DNA of 32,000 bases from Rickettsiales bacterium (GTDB lineage: Bacteria; Pseudomonadota; Alphaproteobacteria; Rs-D84). Below are positions 1,095-23,870 of the stretch, one piece after another. Below the pieces are notes generated by a model. That model made no database searches, had not been told where the DNA came from, and saw only the letters and a list, made by a program, of their open reading frames with translations. The stretch's first letter is position 1. Every line of letters begins with the position of its first letter. The stretch is taken from positions 8,333-40,332 of the forward strand of contig JAISKV010000002.1 in NCBI GenBank assembly GCA_031260805.1, read 5' to 3'. A program made the position numbers and the translations under genes.

Positions 1095-1258
1095 GTTGTT
1101 AGTTATTAATTATTAGTTATTATACCATTGTGCGCGCTGCGACAATTCCGCCACCACAAACAAAAGTATAATAATTAAGACAGTGGGCCAGTTCCCCTCC
1201 TTTGGAGGGGAACTGACCATAAACAAAAGTATAATTACTAATAATTAATAACTGACAA
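1095..1258. repeat. TAATAAC-armed MITE/RPE-like element, copy 1, carrying a nested 48-bp insertion
   Basis: The left arm gttgttagttattaattattagttattata (1095-1124) is followed by the 42-bp core (1125-1166). The right arm is gtataattactaataattaataactgacaa (1229-1258). The 15-bp direct repeat aaacaaaagtataat (1158-1172 and 1221-1235) flanks a GC-rich hairpin. Confidence 0.9.
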
Positions 1259-1279
1259 TGACGCAAGGAGTTAAAAAAC

Positions 1280-2371
1280 ATGCTATCGCAATTATTATAC
1301 AATTACGGGTTTGATATTTTCGGGCGCTCGTCCGCGAACTTTGTCTGCGGATTCTCGGCCGCTTTTCTGATAATGCTAACATTCGGCCGCTGGTTCACAA
1401 ATAAAATGCGCGTATGGCATGGCCGCGGCCAGCCAATCCGCAGCGACGGCCCGCAATCGCATCTGGTCAAGTCAGGCACCCCGACGATGGGCGGCATACT
1501 GATTCTGGCCGCGATAACCGTTTCAGGGCTGGCGTTCATGGATTGGGGCAATGCGACGGCTTGGATTGCATTGGCGGCGCTGCTGGGATTCGGACTTATC
1601 GGATTTATTGACGACTTTGCCAAGGTAAAGCGAAAATCTTCCGAAGACAAAGACGCAATCATGTCGCCAAAAATTCGTTTAATTCTGGAAGGCGTGCTGG
1701 TTATCGTTCTGACATATTTCATAAACAAAACCATGCCGGTTTATATTCCGGAATTGTCGCTGACGATTCCGTTTGTCGGAATATTCACTCTCGGGATTTT
1801 TTACTTTGTCTGGTCTTACTTTGTGATAGTCGGCAGCACGAACGCGGCGAATATAACGGACGGGCTGGACGGCATGCTGGCCAAGGTTATCATACCGGTG
1901 CTGGGCGTTCTGCTGGTCGCGGTGTTTGCGGCGACGCATCTGGACTTTTTCAGCGGCAGCCTGTTTCTGCCATCCGCGGCCGGACTGTACCCATTGCTGG
2001 GCGCGGCATTGGGCGCGGTGCTGGGCTTTTTATGGTTTAACGGCGCGCCGGCCGCGATATTCATGGGCGATGTCGGGTCCTTGGCGCTGGGCGGATTTAT
2101 AGGCACCGTCGCGATGCTGTTAAAGTCGGAAATTATCATGGGAATCGCCGCATTGATGATGGTTGTGATTCTGCTGTCTTCATTGCTGCAAAAAACATGC
2201 TTTAAGATTACGAAAAAACTGACCGGGACCGGGCGGCGGATTTTCAAGATGGCCCCATTGCATCATCACTTTGAGTTGTCCGGCTGGGCGGAAACAAAAA
2301 TATCAGAACGGTTCTTTATCATGTCGCTGCTGTTTTCCGCAATCGCGCTGGCAATCATGAAACTGGGCTGA
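1280..2371 (+). CDS. mraY: Phospho-N-acetylmuramoyl-pentapeptide transferase
   Basis: Contains the motifs NAANITDGLDGM, GDVGSLALGGFIG and APLHHHFE. An AAGGAG Shine-Dalgarno sequence lies 9 nt upstream, and the gene sits in dcw context. Confidence 0.95.
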   Translation: MLSQLLYNYGFDIFGRSSANFVCGFSAAFLIMLTFGRWFTNKMRVWHGRGQPIRSDGPQSHLVKSGTPTMGGILILAAITVSGLAFMDWGNATAWIALAALLGFGLIGFIDDFAKVKRKSSEDKDAIMSPKIRLILEGVLVIVLTYFINKTMPVYIPELSLTIPFVGIFTLGIFYFVWSYFVIVGSTNAANITDGLDGMLAKVIIPVLGVLLVAVFAATHLDFFSGSLFLPSAAGLYPLLGAALGAVLGFLWFNGAPAAIFMGDVGSLALGGFIGTVAMLLKSEIIMGIAALMMVVILLSSLLQKTCFKITKKLTGTGRRIFKMAPLHHHFELSGWAETKISERFFIMSLLFSAIALAIMKLG

Positions 2372-6170: not shown

Positions 6171-6470
6171 ATGGACAAATACGCAATATTTATTTCCGGT
6201 GCGAAACAATATCGGGTTCGGGTTGGCGATGTTGTCAAACTGGAAAAAATCGCGGGGGACGGCACTGTTGAATTTGACAGGGTCTTGATGATCGGCGATC
6301 GGGTCGGCACGCCGCAAATTGCCGGCGCGCGGGTTATCGGCGAAATTCTGGAACAAAAGCGCGACGATAAAATCTTGGTCTTCAAGAAGAAACGGCGTCA
6401 AAACTATCGCCGCACGCGCGGTCATCGCCAGTATCTGACGGTTGTCAAAATCAAGGAAATAAAAGAATAA
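6171..6470 (+). CDS. rplU: 50S ribosomal protein L21
   Basis: Matches YAIFISGAKQYRVRVGDVV...KKKRRQNYRRTRGHRQ. Confidence 0.95.
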   Translation: MDKYAIFISGAKQYRVRVGDVVKLEKIAGDGTVEFDRVLMIGDRVGTPQIAGARVIGEILEQKRDDKILVFKKKRRQNYRRTRGHRQYLTVVKIKEIKE

Positions 6471-6475
6471 ATTCA

Positions 6476-6551
6476 GTTGTTAATTATTAGTTATTATACT
6501 TTTGTTTGTGAATGAATAATAATTAATAACTAATAATTAATAACTATTAAC
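6476..6551. repeat. TAATAAC-armed element, copy 2 (core-deleted derivative)
   Basis: Both arms are present, but only ttttgtttgtg of the core remains. It has the same orientation as copy 4. Confidence 0.8.
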
Positions 6552-6569
6552 GACGCAAGGAGTTAAAAA

Positions 6570-6833
6570 ATGGCACATAAAAAAGGTGGGGCTTCAACCT
6601 CTAACGGACGCGATTCGGCAGGACGGCGTCTGGGTATTAAAAAAGGCGGCGGCCAGCGCGTCATTCCTGGCAACATCATAATTCGTCAGCGCGGAACCAC
6701 GGTCCATCCGGGCCTGAATGTCGGCATGGGCAAAGATCATACTATTTTTGCCAAGATTATCGGCAAGGTTTCGTTCAAGCGCGGAAACGGCGACCGCAAG
6801 AGCGTGTCGGTCATTCCGGACACCGCGGAATAA
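6570..6833 (+). CDS. rpmA: 50S ribosomal protein L27
   Basis: Matches [29 protein letters not shown]...IIIRQRGT. Confidence 0.95.
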
Positions 6834-6865
6834 TTAATAAATATTAACGACGAAAGGAGTTAAAA

Positions 6866-7018
6866 ATGTCAACAAAAAGAACTTATCAGCCATCCAAGAC
6901 GCGCCGCGTGAAAACCCATGGTTTCCGTGCAAAAATGGCGACCAAATCCGGACGCGATGTGCTGAATCGCAGACGGGCCGAAGGGCGCAAGCGTCTGGCC
7001 GTATCAGCGGTGAATTAA
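6866..7018 (+). CDS. rpmH: 50S ribosomal protein L34
   Basis: A 50-aa ORF below the track cutoff reads [50 protein letters not shown]. It has an AAGGAG Shine-Dalgarno sequence and a terminator directly after it. Confidence 0.9.
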
Positions 7019-8010: not shown

Positions 8011-8343
8011 TCATGCTTCATACGGCCTTGGTGGCGGTTCGGAAACAACCGCTTTGGCGGCCCTGAAACAATTCGTTGTGCCGCACAGCGGCAGCAGGGA
8101 ATACTTTTTGTTCACTTCGCGGTCCAGAATTTTCTTTGCATTTGCCGGCGCGCGCATTCGTACAAAAACCCAGCCTGCATTTTCCAGCAATCTAATGCCT
8201 GTCTTGTTCAGGCGAATCTTTTTGTTCCCGTCCGGCCCGATATGATACATGTATCCGCGGTAAACAACGGCGCAATGCCGCCATCGCCGCAGGACCAGCC
8301 GCAGCAAAATCATATTTGTGTTTGGTGTGAATCCAATCAGCAT
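8011..8343 (-). CDS. Hypothetical protein
   Basis: A 110-aa ORF with no clear Shine-Dalgarno sequence and no recognisable family. It looks more protein-like than the overlapping plus-strand ORF. Confidence 0.3.
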   Translation of the reverse strand: MLIGFTPNTNMILLRLVLRRWRHCAVVYRGYMYHIGPDGNKKIRLNKTGIRLLENAGWVFVRMRAPANAKKILDREVNKKYSLLPLCGTTNCFRAAKAVVSEPPPRPYEA

Positions 8344-8958: not shown

Positions 8959-9074
8959 AAGTTATTAATTATTAGTTATTAATTATTATACCATGGTGCG
9001 TGTTGTGAAAATTCCGCCACAACAAACAAAGGGATAATAACTAATAACTAATAACTAATAATTAATAACTATTA
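8959..9074. repeat. TAATAAC-armed MITE/RPE-like element, copy 3 (diverged core)
   Basis: GTTATTA/ATTATTA arrays, a core 35/42 identical to copy 1, then a (TAATAAC)n array. Confidence 0.85.
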
Positions 9075-9100
9075 AAAAACGCGGCTACGCCGCGTTTTTT
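9074..9100. terminator. Bidirectional rho-independent terminator
   Basis: Sequence AAAAAACGCGGC-TAC-GCCGCGTTTTTT. The T-run overlaps the stop codon of the 9099 gene. Confidence 0.8.
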
Positions 9101-14249: not shown

Positions 14250-15566
14250 ATGAAAATAGTCATCGCAGGACGCCCAAACACCGGCAAGTCAACCCTGTTC
14301 AATCAATTGACCGGAACGCGCGACGCGCTGGTTCACAACCGGCCGGGCGTGACGCGCGATGCGATTGCCGGGAAACTTATCGGAACCGACCATGATGTCT
14401 TTGACACCGCGGGGCTGGAACGGAACACCACGGAAATCGGGAAACTGGCGACGGATATTGCTTTTAACTTCATACGCGACGCGGATTTGGTCTTGTTCGT
14501 TGTTGACGCGCGCATCGGGATTACAGGCGAAGACATTGAGTGGGCGAAATTGGTCCGCCGCGCGAATAAAAAAATAATCCTGCTGGCGAATAAATCGGAA
14601 TCATTCAAGAAACTGGCCGACCAGTCCGAATTTTACAAACTTGGCCTGGGCGCGCCGAACCCGATAAGCGCAGAGCACAAGACCGGATTTGATGTTATAT
14701 ATGACTTTATTGAAAAACATTACGCCGACAACCCGGAACCTCAAACCTCAAACCTCAAACCTTTGCGAATATCAATCATGGGCCAACCGAATGTGGGCAA
14801 GTCTACGCTGGTAAACACAATCATCGGGGAAAATCGCGTTATCGTCCGGGACGAGCCGGGGATAACGCGCGACACAATCAAACTGCCGACGCGATTTTAC
14901 GGCCGCGATATAATCTTGGCGGACACGGCGGGATTGCGGCGCAAGGCGAACATTACCGATGCGGTTGAAACTCTGTCAGCGTTGAAATCTTTGGATATTA
15001 TTGAAAAATCAGATGTTATAATTCTGGTGGTTGACGCGACGCGCGATATTGAAAACCAGGCGCTGGGCATAGCGGGCCGCGTTTATGACGGCGGCAAGAT
15101 TTTATGCGTCGCGCTGAACAAGTGGGATCTGGTGGAAGATAAAGAAGACCGGTTGCTGAAACTGAAACACGCGTTCAACAATTCTTTTCATCAGATTATA
15201 AAGCCTTTGATTCTGGCGATTTCCGCCGAAACCGGAACCGGTGTCCGAAACATGTTCAAGCGGGTTTACGAATTGTGGGATATCTCCCAGACACGCGCGC
15301 CGACCAGCCTGGTCAACCGCGTCGTTGAAAAATTGGTGAAATTGCGCCAGCCGCCAATGTCGCGGGTCGGGCGCGGGATGAAGATAAAATTCGCGACCCA
15401 AGTGGCCGAGCATCCGATAAAAATAAAAATCAATGTCGGCGGCGCGTCCGATATCCCGGAAAGTTATACGCGGTACCTGCGCCGCGGAATTGCAAAAGAA
15501 TTGCACTGGGAACAGTTGCCGATAATTATAGAGTATTCCAAAAACGAAAACCCGTTTGAGAGTTAG
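14250..15566 (+). CDS. der: Ribosome-associated GTPase Der/EngA
   Basis: Two G domains (GRPNTGKSTLFN..DTAG..NKSE and GQPNVGKSTLVN..DTAG..NKWD) are followed by a KH-like C-terminus. Confidence 0.95.
   Translation: MKIVIAGRPNTGKSTLFNQLTGTRDALVHNRPGVTRDAIAGKLIGTDHDVFDTAGLERNTTEIGKLATDIAFNFIRDADLVLFVVDARIGITGEDIEWAKLVRRANKKIILLANKSESFKKLADQSEFYKLGLGAPNPISAEHKTGFDVIYDFIEKHYADNPEPQTSNLKPLRISIMGQPNVGKSTLVNTIIGENRVIVRDEPGITRDTIKLPTRFYGRDIILADTAGLRRKANITDAVETLSALKSLDIIEKSDVIILVVDATRDIENQALGIAGRVYDGGKILCVALNKWDLVEDKEDRLLKLKHAFNNSFHQIIKPLILAISAETGTGVRNMFKRVYELWDISQTRAPTSLVNRVVEKLVKLRQPPMSRVGRGMKIKFATQVAEHPIKIKINVGGASDIPESYTRYLRRGIAKELHWEQLPIIIEYSKNENPFES
14737..14762 (+). repeat. (AACCTCA)3.7 heptamer array in frame within the der inter-domain linker
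   Basis: aacctcaaacctcaaacctcaaacct encodes EPQTSNLKP. The same unit forms the right arm of the hairpin at 25032-25058. Confidence 0.9.
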
Positions 15567-15847: not shown

Positions 15848-15908
15848 AAATCCTGTAAACCACCTCGGCCTACGGCCACCCCTCCATGGGAGGGGAACTG
15901 GCCGCTGA

Positions 15909-17162
15909 CTAAAACCTGTACATCACGCCCAGTTTCACCATCGGCATAAATTTGTAATCTTTCAGATCATGATTCAGGTCTGACAAAGCCTTGTCATAAT
16001 CTGCCCATGCATTATCAATATCGTGCTGCAACCCGTTTCCTGCGGCCCCAACCAAATCGTCCCAGTTGGTTTGCACTTCGCCGAATGCATTCTGCACATC
16101 GCTGGGCAAGTTGCTGACCCAGCCGGGCGCGGTGCCGCCGCTGAGATAGCCGACCAATCCGTCCGCCAACGCATTCCAGTCTATGTTTGTGCCATACGCG
16201 GATTCTATGGCCGATTTGGCCGCAGCATATGCCGGATTATCAATATTGTTTTTGATATAATTCGTGGTCAGATTCTTGGTCAATTCTTCCACATTCGGCT
16301 TGTCCCCTGCGGCATTCAGCAATGTTTCCCATTGCCCGCAATTCGCCCCGTCCGGACAGAATTGCGCTTGCAGTGTCGGATGCGTGATATTCTTCCGCGA
16401 CACTTTCAGCGGATCGCGCGCGAACACAACGCCGGCGTCCATATAAAACTTGAACCCGCGGAACACGCCCAAATCAAATCCGATTCCGGCATAAGGGCCT
16501 GAATAATTCCAATTCAATTTGGCCGCTATCTTGCTGCCAGCGGCGGATTGAAAGCCTATCCTGTCAGTCCCGCCCGCATCAATAAGATAACTGCCGCCGA
16601 TATCGTTCGCGATTGTATTGGTCAGACCGACCTTCATCGTGCCAAAATAGTATCCGCCGGTCAGCCGAATTCCGCCTGCAAACCAAGTGTCGCCGAACGG
16701 ATAAAAATCAATCATCGCGCCGACGCTCTGGTTTTTAATATTGAACACCGCAGTGGATCCGCCAATATCAACAAACCCGCCGTTCAGCGTCAGTTTGTCG
16801 TCATCGTCAAATGTTATCTTGTCCAACTGCGCGATATTGTTCAGATCAAAATCAATACCGGCATACCCAATGCTGGCGTCAATCTTGTGCTGATCATCCT
16901 GCAACGGCTTGATTTTTGCAGTGCCGGTCAAACCGCTGGAAAAATCAAACGCCAAACGCGCGCCAAATCTTTTGCCCCAGAACGATTCGTGCTTTTTATT
17001 CGCATACCCGACAAACGCATTCACGCTGGTAAACGGGACCACCAGCGGAACGCCGATGCCAAACTGAACGCCCTGGTACCAAGGCGACGCATCATCCGAA
17101 TTATCAGCCAGCGCGCCGGTTGTTATTGCTGCAACACAGATAAAAGGCACTAGTTTACGCAT
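15909..17162 (-). CDS. Outer-membrane beta-barrel protein of unknown function
   Basis: The signal peptide is MRKLVPFICVAAITTGALA, the body is Gly/aromatic-rich with strand patterning, and the C-terminus is KLGVMYRF. It is the last gene of the pilin-like operon. Confidence 0.7.
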   Translation of the reverse strand: MRKLVPFICVAAITTGALADNSDDASPWYQGVQFGIGVPLVVPFTSVNAFVGYANKKHESFWGKRFGARLAFDFSSGLTGTAKIKPLQDDQHKIDASIGYAGIDFDLNNIAQLDKITFDDDDKLTLNGGFVDIGGSTAVFNIKNQSVGAMIDFYPFGDTWFAGGIRLTGGYYFGTMKVGLTNTIANDIGGSYLIDAGGTDRIGFQSAAGSKIAAKLNWNYSGPYAGIGFDLGVFRGFKFYMDAGVVFARDPLKVSRKNITHPTLQAQFCPDGANCGQWETLLNAAGDKPNVEELTKNLTTNYIKNNIDNPAYAAAKSAIESAYGTNIDWNALADGLVGYLSGGTAPGWVSNLPSDVQNAFGEVQTNWDDLVGAAGNGLQHDIDNAWADYDKALSDLNHDLKDYKFMPMVKLGVMYRF

Positions 17163-23426: not shown

Positions 23427-23723
23427 ATGCAATATAAGAAAAATCAAATGTCAACAGGACTGATGATCCAACGGTGCCATCGCTGGCGTCAAAAGCGCAA
23501 ACAATACCTGGACAGCGCGCGCCAGACAAATGACGAGGTAGAACGGGAGCGCCTGCTGCAAATGGCCGAGCATTACGGGCGCATAGTGTCGGACGAGCAA
23601 GGCGTCATAGACAACCGCCGCGACCCCAAAGATAATAATAAAAACGCAGCCGCGGAAGACAATTATTCGTCAATGGACGATGATGATGAAATTCCGGACT
23701 TTCGGGAAGTAATAGGAAAATAA
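23427..23723 (+). CDS. Small acidic-tailed protein, DUF4167-like
   Basis: QKRKQYLDSARQTNDEVERERLLQMAEHYGRIV resembles the alphaproteobacterial DUF4167 pattern (...A(E/Q)HY.R). The C-terminus is acidic. Confidence 0.45.
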   Translation: MQYKKNQMSTGLMIQRCHRWRQKRKQYLDSARQTNDEVERERLLQMAEHYGRIVSDEQGVIDNRRDPKDNNKNAAAEDNYSSMDDDDEIPDFREVIGK

Positions 23724-23734
23724 ATGCGCCATTT

Positions 23735-23843
23735 TAGTTGTTAGTTATTAATTATTAGTTATTATTCTTTTGTTTGTGGTGGCGGAATTATCGCAGCGCG
23801 CACAATGGTATAATAACTAATAATTAACAATTAATAACTATTA
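23735..23843. repeat. TAATAAC-armed MITE/RPE-like element, copy 4 (inverted relative to copy 1)
   Basis: The reverse complement of 23767-23808 matches 1125-1166 at 41 of 42 positions. It is flanked by GTTATTA / TAATAAC arrays. Confidence 0.9.
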
Positions 23844-23870
23844 AAAAATCGGGCGATGCCCGATTTTTTA
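23844..23870. terminator. Bidirectional rho-independent terminator
   Basis: Sequence AAAAAATCGGGC-GAT-GCCCGATTTTTT. The T-run overlaps the mreB stop codon. Confidence 0.8.

Follow-up and report, generated by a model that had tools for sequence, protein, structure and literature searches.

The DNA analyzed here (the window) is a stretch of 32,000 nucleotides, positions 8333–40332 of contig C15 in an assembly, designated G000, of 729 kb in 15 contigs with a G+C content of 51% and a completeness of 93.5%. Relatives of its MreB protein are from gut Alphaproteobacteria that are named Candidatus Enterousia or listed as uncultured Rickettsiales. The window contains four copies of an armed repeat: copy 1 (1095–1258, minus strand) in the spacer between an unnamed gene and mraY, copy 2 (6476–6551, plus strand) in the rplU/rpmA spacer, copy 3 (8961–9069, minus strand) beside a two-way terminator that lies upstream of a gene on the minus strand, and copy 4 (23737–23838, plus strand) between a small gene and the mreB terminator. 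The strand assigned to each copy is the one that carries the G/T-rich, foldable version of the centre. On re-inspection of the sequence, all four copies are present where a preliminary description had placed them, and they fill the spacer from a stop codon to the next start or terminator as it had stated. The stop at 1089 is followed by copy 1 at 1095, the end of which (1258) precedes the ATG at 1280; copy 2 similarly begins at 6476 after a stop at 6470 and ends at 6551 before the ATG at 6570. Copy 4 begins at 23737, the preceding stop being at 23723, and has a terminator (23843–23869) on its far side.

Copy 4 has the canonical length of 102 nt and comprises a 28-nt arm (23737–23764), a 46-nt centre (23765–23810), and a second 28-nt arm (23811–23838). 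Each canonical arm consists of four heptamers of the form (G/A)TT(A/G)TTA, with the junction TA on both sides of the centre. These arms had been described as AT-only, which is wrong: they are AT-rich, and most units contain one G (left, GTTATTA) or one C (right, TAATAAC). Copy 3 has the same organization (arm 8961–8988, centre 8989–9034) except for a second arm of five units (9035–9069), in which stop codons do occur in six of the six frames. Both copies abut two-way intrinsic terminators, at 9074–9100 (A6-hairpin-T6) and 23843–23869, respectively. In copy 2, the first arm (6476–6496) is followed by a truncated centre (6497–6516, TACTTTTGTTTGTGAATGAA) and a second arm (6517–6544) plus TATTAAC; as had been noticed, most of the core is lost, and what remains is ∼14–20 nt from the first part of the centre (TACTTTTGTTTGTG...). 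The reported identities of the 42-nt core at 1125–1166 were also reproduced, with 41/42 positions matching the inverted segment 23767–23808 and 35/42 matching 8991–9032. Searches with a 23-nt half-core, allowing up to 3 mismatches, and with a 21-nt arm gave 3 and 17 matches, respectively, versus 0.00 expected from shuffles in each case.

Copy 1 is a composite. Its outer arm (1095–1122, minus strand) is composed of the four heptamers GTTGTTA GTTATTA ATTATTA GTTATTA, and its 46-nt centre (1123–1168, minus strand; TACCATTGTGCGCGCTGCGACAATTCCGCCACCACAAACAAAAGTA) includes the 42-nt core. The inner arm is reduced to a stub (1169–1179, minus strand; TAATAATTAAG) in front of a nested GC-rich palindrome of 34 nt (1185–1218; GGGCCAGTTCCCCTCC-TTTG-GAGGGGAACTGACC). 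A 15-nt direct repeat (AAACAAAAGTATAAT) of positions 1158–1172 is located at 1221–1235, so that the pair brackets the nested module, and the second arm (1232–1258, minus strand) reads TAATTAC TAATAAT TAATAAC, then TGACAA. The nested palindrome is a member of another family, for which a loose pattern gave 78 matches across the genome, ∼50 of them genuine copies, and the junction between GC palindrome and core (..GTGG|CCAGTT) is identical at three loci. GC-rich composite modules of the form GGCCAGTTCCCCTCC-NNNN-GGAGGGG-TGGCCGCAGGCCGGGGTGGTTTACAG, for example at window positions 1185–1218 and 15879–15930 (the latter corresponding to C15:24221), are usually found between heptamer arrays of two different units, where alternative hairpins are possible. 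Directly 3′ of the copy 1 arm lies a ribosome-binding module, (A)TGACGCAAGGAGTTAAAAA..ATG (1258–1282, plus strand). This 20-nt module is also present at 6550–6572 and 6847–6868 and at no other place in the genome; a fifth, degenerate arm remnant (AATAATTAATAAATATTA) is located at 6829–6846, 5′ of rpmH.

The repeat is dispersed throughout the genome. A pattern scan located 30 loci with GTTATTA/TAATAAC arms on 11 of the 15 contigs, and the centre is present in 13 of these loci, on eight contigs; the copies are therefore not products of a local segmental duplication confined to the window. The elements are short and non-coding and have terminal inverted repeats, the 28-nt arms being 96% paired, and in these features, together with their many dispersed copies, they resemble MITEs. 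The number of units in an arm ranges from 2 to 5. Eleven centre copies align over nearly their full length with BLAST identities to the best copy of 82–93%, and two others give lower values (83% over 87 nt and 76%). Because the copies differ by 7–18%, there appears to have been no recent burst. TA or TTA is common at both ends of the element and, as a target-site duplication, would be indistinguishable from the periodic arm sequence. A terminator (A-run, hairpin, and T-run) adjoins 13 of the 30 armed loci, and 10 of the 26 intergenic loci are in spacers between convergent genes, which account for 24% of spacer bases. A search of Rfam 15 gave no family at the gathering score and only chance-level matches (E ≥ 1) on an adjacent terminator, so that, with nothing convincing at E values up to 5, the core does not correspond to a small RNA gene known to that database.

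Folding of the centre is constrained on a single strand. In its G/T-rich version (5′-TACTTTTGTTTGTGGTGGCGGAATTGTCGCAGCGCGCACAATGGTA), the centre forms a hairpin of 10 pairs on top of the arm stem, and 124 of 129 stem cells are paired, 56 of them as G-T(U) wobble pairs that become 56 A-C mismatches on the opposite strand. Ratios of transitions to transversions, counted from related copies and hence not from independent events, are 28:1 in the variable half of the stem, 3:1 in the G/T-rich half, and 16:17 in the unpaired columns of the core. Selection for pairing on one single strand, either RNA or single-stranded DNA, would produce such a pattern. The foldable strand is sense relative to the flanking genes in ∼3 copies and antisense in ∼4, the rest being undecidable, and its distribution relative to GC skew (8 to 5) is unbiased. 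Likewise, in a comparison of 13 tandem spacers with two or more arrays each, greater stability was found for the sense strand in five and for the antisense strand in eight. Because the foldable strand is tied neither to gene direction nor to GC skew, we read the constraint as acting on propagation of the element itself and not on host mRNA; a function at the mRNA level was rejected on the same lack of bias in orientation and in sense versus antisense folding. Within a copy, the left and right arms did not covary more than in shuffled controls. Adenine mutagenesis in the style of DGRs was also considered and discarded, as the differences between copies are transitions at stem positions and not A-to-N changes.

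Outside the window, the same arms bound a longer element that contains a gene. This element (C13:25357–25789) is ∼430 nt long, with a G+C content of 31% in the 51% genome, and its gene (C13:25398–25778) encodes 126 residues and lies exactly between GTTATTA arms that had been located independently by the arm scan. It has the TAC/GTA junctions of the short copies, and both sequence and fold indicate that TACCTTGG and CCAAGAGTA extend the pairing of its arms to a closing stem of ∼25 bp. The stop codon of the gene is supplied by the TAATAAC arm. Beyond the arms, the junctions, and ∼8–10 subterminal bases, the 46-nt centre is not recognizably derived from the present C13 copy. The encoded protein belongs to the four-helix-bundle, S23p/Avd-like type, with scores of 92 bits for PF05635 and 107 bits for TIGR02436. 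To our knowledge, PF05635 proteins have no catalytic activity. There are five PF05635 genes in G000, none of them in the four window copies, and all five are inside inverted arms of tandem 6–7-nt units; the other four are in AAGGTTT, AGAGTTT, ACTCGGG, and AGGTGT arms, and these units also characterize other, gene-less families. The five proteins score 106–115 bits against TIGR02436 ("four helix bundle protein", cut-off 24) and fall into two old subfamilies (53–61% and 44% identity). Their nearest solved relative is PDB 2rld, and two of the five are weakly similar to Avd, the accessory protein of DGRs, which PF05635 is reported to resemble (PMC10053308). Some PF05635 proteins have array-encoded C-terminal tails, for example ..EKPQTSNLRP and ..GHTPTPAPTQ. 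In a literature search, we found no paper that links PF05635 to dispersed heptamer-armed repeats.

The GTTATTA family is one of ∼ten in the 729-kb genome, each with its own 6–7-nt unit. A count of tandem arrays gave 105 with a period of 7 (161 and 270 when the thresholds were relaxed) and no more than seven with any other period in the range 4–12; the heptamer arrays alone occupy 7.5 kb of ∼70 kb of spacer DNA. The units often occur as mirror-image pairs around family-specific cores and are mixed with GC-rich modules and terminators. The abundant AATTAAG, AGATAAA, AAAGTGA, and GATTTAT families have no gene-bearing member in the 93.5%-complete assembly. Contigs C9 (1–163) and C12 (1–142) begin with one mosaic repeat, an AATTAAG-type arm plus a GC module; since two contigs start in a shared repeat, such repeats break the assembly, and the copy numbers given here are underestimates. 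Several arrays are within coding sequence. Perfect four-unit arrays of TTTTCAC (C6:22371, C6:23151, C12:75911, and C12:113266) and ATTATTC (C9:28479, C12:156630, C12:157320, and C12:159647) are inside the part of genes starting ATGAAAAAA that codes for the signal peptide; adding or removing a unit would cause a frameshift, which makes these arrays candidate phase-variation switches. Heptamer or hexamer arrays are also translated at the ends of real genes (window 14737–14762, C1:1593–1625, and C9:21314–21340).

The association between PF05635 genes and arrays extends to related genomes. Sixteen of 20 PF05635 genes sampled in relatives are between inverted arms of tandem 6–7-nt units, and for at least four of these genes the arm units match gene-less hairpins of the same genome. 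In a comparison of 55 related genomes, the number of PF05635 copies is correlated with the density of arrays, which was measured mostly, with few exceptions, in DNA that had not been picked around PF05635 genes (Spearman coefficient 0.68, p = 9e-9; 0.75 over 27 genera); because the genomes compared are related, the p-values overstate independence. The mean number of arrays per 10 kb is 0.04 in the 38 genomes that lack PF05635 and 3.2 in the seven that have at least four copies, and almost no arrays are found in G004 and G020, which are PF05635-free and similar in G+C content. Exceptions are G056, with six PF05635 genes and few arrays in 40 kb, and G015, with one gene and seven arrays in 60 kb. 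Arm units partly follow the protein lineage, the period-6 AGGTGT, AGTGCA, and AGTGTC arms being associated with proteins that are 61–62% identical.

The spacer occupied by copy 2 is only 3–25 nt long in most relatives compared. In four genera (G010 L094, G001 L097, G002 L107, and G017 L093), it contains repeat-armed hairpins that differ from genus to genus, which suggests that one site was occupied several times independently. The units at this spacer match those of PF05635 gene arms in G010, G001, and G002; the G017 spacer resembles the arms of its gene only loosely, and the GTAATCA unit of the G017 gene arms recurs in covariance-model hits of that genome. The GTTATTA element itself was also sought elsewhere. 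BLAST of the centre against 40 relatives gave no match, and a covariance-model search of 150 genomes of the family yielded only weak hits, which represent analogous elements with other cores. Exact-pattern scans of genome, metagenome, and viral contig collections gave nothing, phage records contained no match to the element, and an exact look-up of the L27 protein for strain variants retrieved no record.

None of the transposase families sought accompanies the repeats. The search for an IS200/IS605-type TnpA proposed in the preliminary description was carried out; neither Y1 (IS200/IS605 TnpA and RAYT; PF01797) nor four further transposase families (rve, DDE_Tnp_1, IS110, and TnpB) were found in the 93.5%-complete G000 assembly, and a search for PDDEXK_3 was also negative. 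G000 does encode three tyrosine recombinases, RNase III (rnc), and one reverse transcriptase (L131; C12:145–1197, minus strand), a DGR-type protein of 350 residues with an IGNLCSQ motif and 8ub7 as its best solved relative (135 bits). A gene for a 68-residue ribbon-helix-helix protein lies upstream of it, and no Avd gene adjoins it. The reverse transcriptase is patchily distributed (88 of 299 genomes of the family). It was considered as the driver of the repeats because it co-occurred with arrays in a first sample, but a wider sample within genera indicated that it is neither sufficient nor necessary. Sampled genomes with the reverse transcriptase and no PF05635 (two g5, one g6, and five g14 genomes) have zero arrays, G056 (g9) has the reverse transcriptase, six PF05635 genes, and one array, and G015 and G023 have arrays and no reverse transcriptase. 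In the sampled genomes that are rich in arrays (six of six), the reverse transcriptase is accompanied by four or more PF05635 genes; arrays are absent from the sampled genomes that have only the reverse transcriptase and scarce in those that have only PF05635. We can conceive of heptamer-armed hairpins as a class of mobile element that needs no transposase, in which the sole gene product, an Avd-like four-helix-bundle oligomer, reads the 7-nt units, maybe together with the DGR-type reverse transcriptase of the genome, which would copy the folded RNA into new sites. This idea would explain why the centre is constrained on one strand with G-U pairs allowed, why an Avd-less reverse transcriptase coexists with five Avd-like genes inside hairpins, and why array-rich genomes have both the enzyme and at least four PF05635 genes. 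Nevertheless, we consider such a class quite unlikely.

The interpretation that we favor, with a probability of about 0.6, is that the four stretches represent the gene-less, MITE-like form of a ∼430-nt IVS-type element with a PF05635 gene. In this interpretation, the short copies would spread in trans, and the four-helix-bundle protein, which is an oligomer in its relatives, may recognize the tandem units in a single strand that has folded. By analogy with the intervening sequences of rRNA, the AU-rich stem of 28 bp, when transcribed, would be cut by RNase III, and such a cut would split or trim host transcripts. The stops in six frames would be a by-product of the sequence of the GTTATTA unit. 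The preliminary description had proposed a non-autonomous, MITE- or RPE-like mobile element or, alternatively, a recruited insulator of translation or transcription. Its non-autonomous MITE-like element is supported by the 30 loci and by the same-armed, gene-bearing element at C13:25357–25789, whereas the insulator and the likeness to RPEs are not upheld, for reasons given below.

The alternatives differ in how they account for position, dispersal, and the link with PF05635. The insulator is best considered as part of a wider proposal that the repeat is a host-recruited RNA element, an intercistronic or 3′-UTR hairpin that provides an RNase III site for stabilizing or processing mRNA and blocks read-through translation. 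The location of copies at gene ends and within the rplU-rpmA operon, the stops in six frames, an RNA-like stem that tolerates wobble pairs, the presence of RNase III, the different hairpins in the same rplU-rpmA spacer of several genera, and the identical ribosome-binding module 3′ of three copies would all be expected of such an element. However, the foldable strand is sense in ∼3 copies and antisense in ∼4 with the rest undecidable, and the sense strand of tandem spacers does not fold better (5 versus 8 of 13); some copies, such as copy 3, are downstream of a terminator; units of sister families (e.g. AACCTCA) lack the six-frame stops; most relatives manage with an rplU-rpmA spacer of 3–25 nt; and 38 related genomes manage without such arrays. 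We therefore regard recruitment by the host as unlikely. Also improbable, in our estimation, is that nothing has moved: arrays and their mirror images would arise in place by slippage and hairpin-templated repair, copies would spread by recombination or gene conversion, and PF05635 genes would merely be another place where arrays arise. This fits the shuffling of modules, with arms that stand by themselves or are combined with other cores, GC palindromes, or terminators, the restriction of the arm plus ribosome-binding module to a 6-kb neighborhood, the variation from 2 to 5 units, and arm variants that do not covary beyond chance. It does not account for a non-repetitive 46-nt centre with precise arm junctions at 13 loci on eight contigs or for genomes that lack the gene and are essentially array-free even at similar G+C content (G004 and G020). 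Moreover, PF05635 genes are inside inverted arms so often (5 of 5 here and 16 of 20 in relatives) that their location is hard to explain unless gene and arms form one unit.

Two further possibilities have less to recommend them. A classical MITE whose conventional transposase was lost, or is encoded in the unassembled part of the genome, would have the small size, terminal inverted repeats, and many copies observed here, TA is common at both ends as it is in Tc1/IS630-type MITEs and Correia elements (PMC2649163), and metagenome-assembled genomes often lose insertion sequences. We nevertheless judge it very unlikely, since none of the five transposase families sought (Y1, rve, DDE_Tnp_1, IS110, and TnpB-type) was found in an assembly that is 93.5% complete, ∼ten arm-unit families in 729 kb would require as many transposases, and the sole long element with the same arms carries a PF05635 gene and not a transposase. 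There is only a slim chance that the centre is a small RNA gene with the arms as its flanks. Although folding of the centre is confined to one strand, where transitions preserve the pairs, and an extended −10-like motif (TGGTATAAT) is found at the core-arm junction of the foldable strand, this motif belongs to a palindromic junction present on both strands. In addition, Rfam contains no match, the centre lacks a terminator of its own, its 13 copies are diverged and occur in either orientation, and it is absent from all relatives searched.

If, as the favored interpretation proposes, the PF05635 protein acts on tandem units, the repeats would represent a type of mobile element without a recognizable transposase, and PF05635 would gain a nucleic-acid partner that can be tested. 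For annotators, the elements amount to an appreciable part of the spacer DNA in these gut Alphaproteobacteria, and they break assemblies at contig ends.

Among known systems, Rickettsia palindromic elements are similar in being palindromic repeats of ∼100–150 nt in reduced alphaproteobacterial genomes. RPEs insert in frame within genes. In contrast, the window copies are strictly intergenic and full of stops, being closed in six frames. The REP/BIME/REPIN-RAYT systems share with the present elements a mosaic of intergenic palindromes at gene ends and terminators, folding on one strand with G-T pairs tolerated, and a single-copy partner gene flanked by repeats; they differ in that no Y1/RAYT gene (PF01797) was found here and the partner is a four-helix-bundle protein. 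Heptamer repeats have been described elsewhere, namely TAACTGA in Beggiatoaceae, cyanobacteria, and Bacteroidetes (PMC4679880) and GGGAATC/GGGGAYT in Xanthomonas and Nostoc (PMC4692102). Like the repeats in G000, these have 7-nt units, of which about four are preferred, are mostly intergenic and near gene ends, and are lineage-specific, abundant, and of no known function. However, they are mostly direct arrays, with one unit in each genome, whereas here mirror-image pairs of arms surround cores, many units coexist in one genome, and there is a link to PF05635. Among MITE-like repeats, the Correia elements (CREE/nemis) of Neisseria come closest as functional analogues. They are intergenic foldbacks of 104–157 bp with inverted ends, a characteristic core, TA at the ends, and, as here, no transposase of their own (PMC2649163), and they are co-transcribed and bound or cut by RNase III (PMC2649163). 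Their ends are not tandem repeats, they have no known gene-bearing partner, they carry IHF sites and promoters, and they have no sequence similarity to the heptamer-armed element.

The gene-bearing form recalls the intervening sequences of 23S rRNA in Coxiella burnetii and Leptospira. The Coxiella IVS is described as a selfish element of 428 nt with a terminal stem of 28 bp, an S23p ORF, and excision by RNase III, and its S23p protein is seemingly not even made (PMC4990558). The C13 element is similar in length (∼430 nt), in having an S23p (PF05635) ORF in its full-length form, in a G+C content below that of the genome, and in a long terminal stem, which is formed by arms of 28 nt in the short copies and measures ∼25 bp in C13 and 28 bp in Coxiella. 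In contrast to the IVS, the copies described here are between protein-coding genes and not in helix 25 or 45 of 23S rRNA, a comparison made with an assembly from which the 23S gene is absent. Their arms are tandem heptamers, many copies are gene-less, and ∼ten sister families share one genome; moreover, excision by RNase III is a property of the rRNA elements, whereas in G000 there is the rnc gene, and cutting is predicted. Three old loose ends, the rRNA intervening sequences, the S23p/four-helix-bundle proteins, which are widespread and have no assigned function, and the unexplained heptamer repeats of bacteria, are joined in a single genome in which the same ends occur with and without a gene and all five PF05635 genes are inside such ends, while gene-free relatives are nearly devoid of the repeats.
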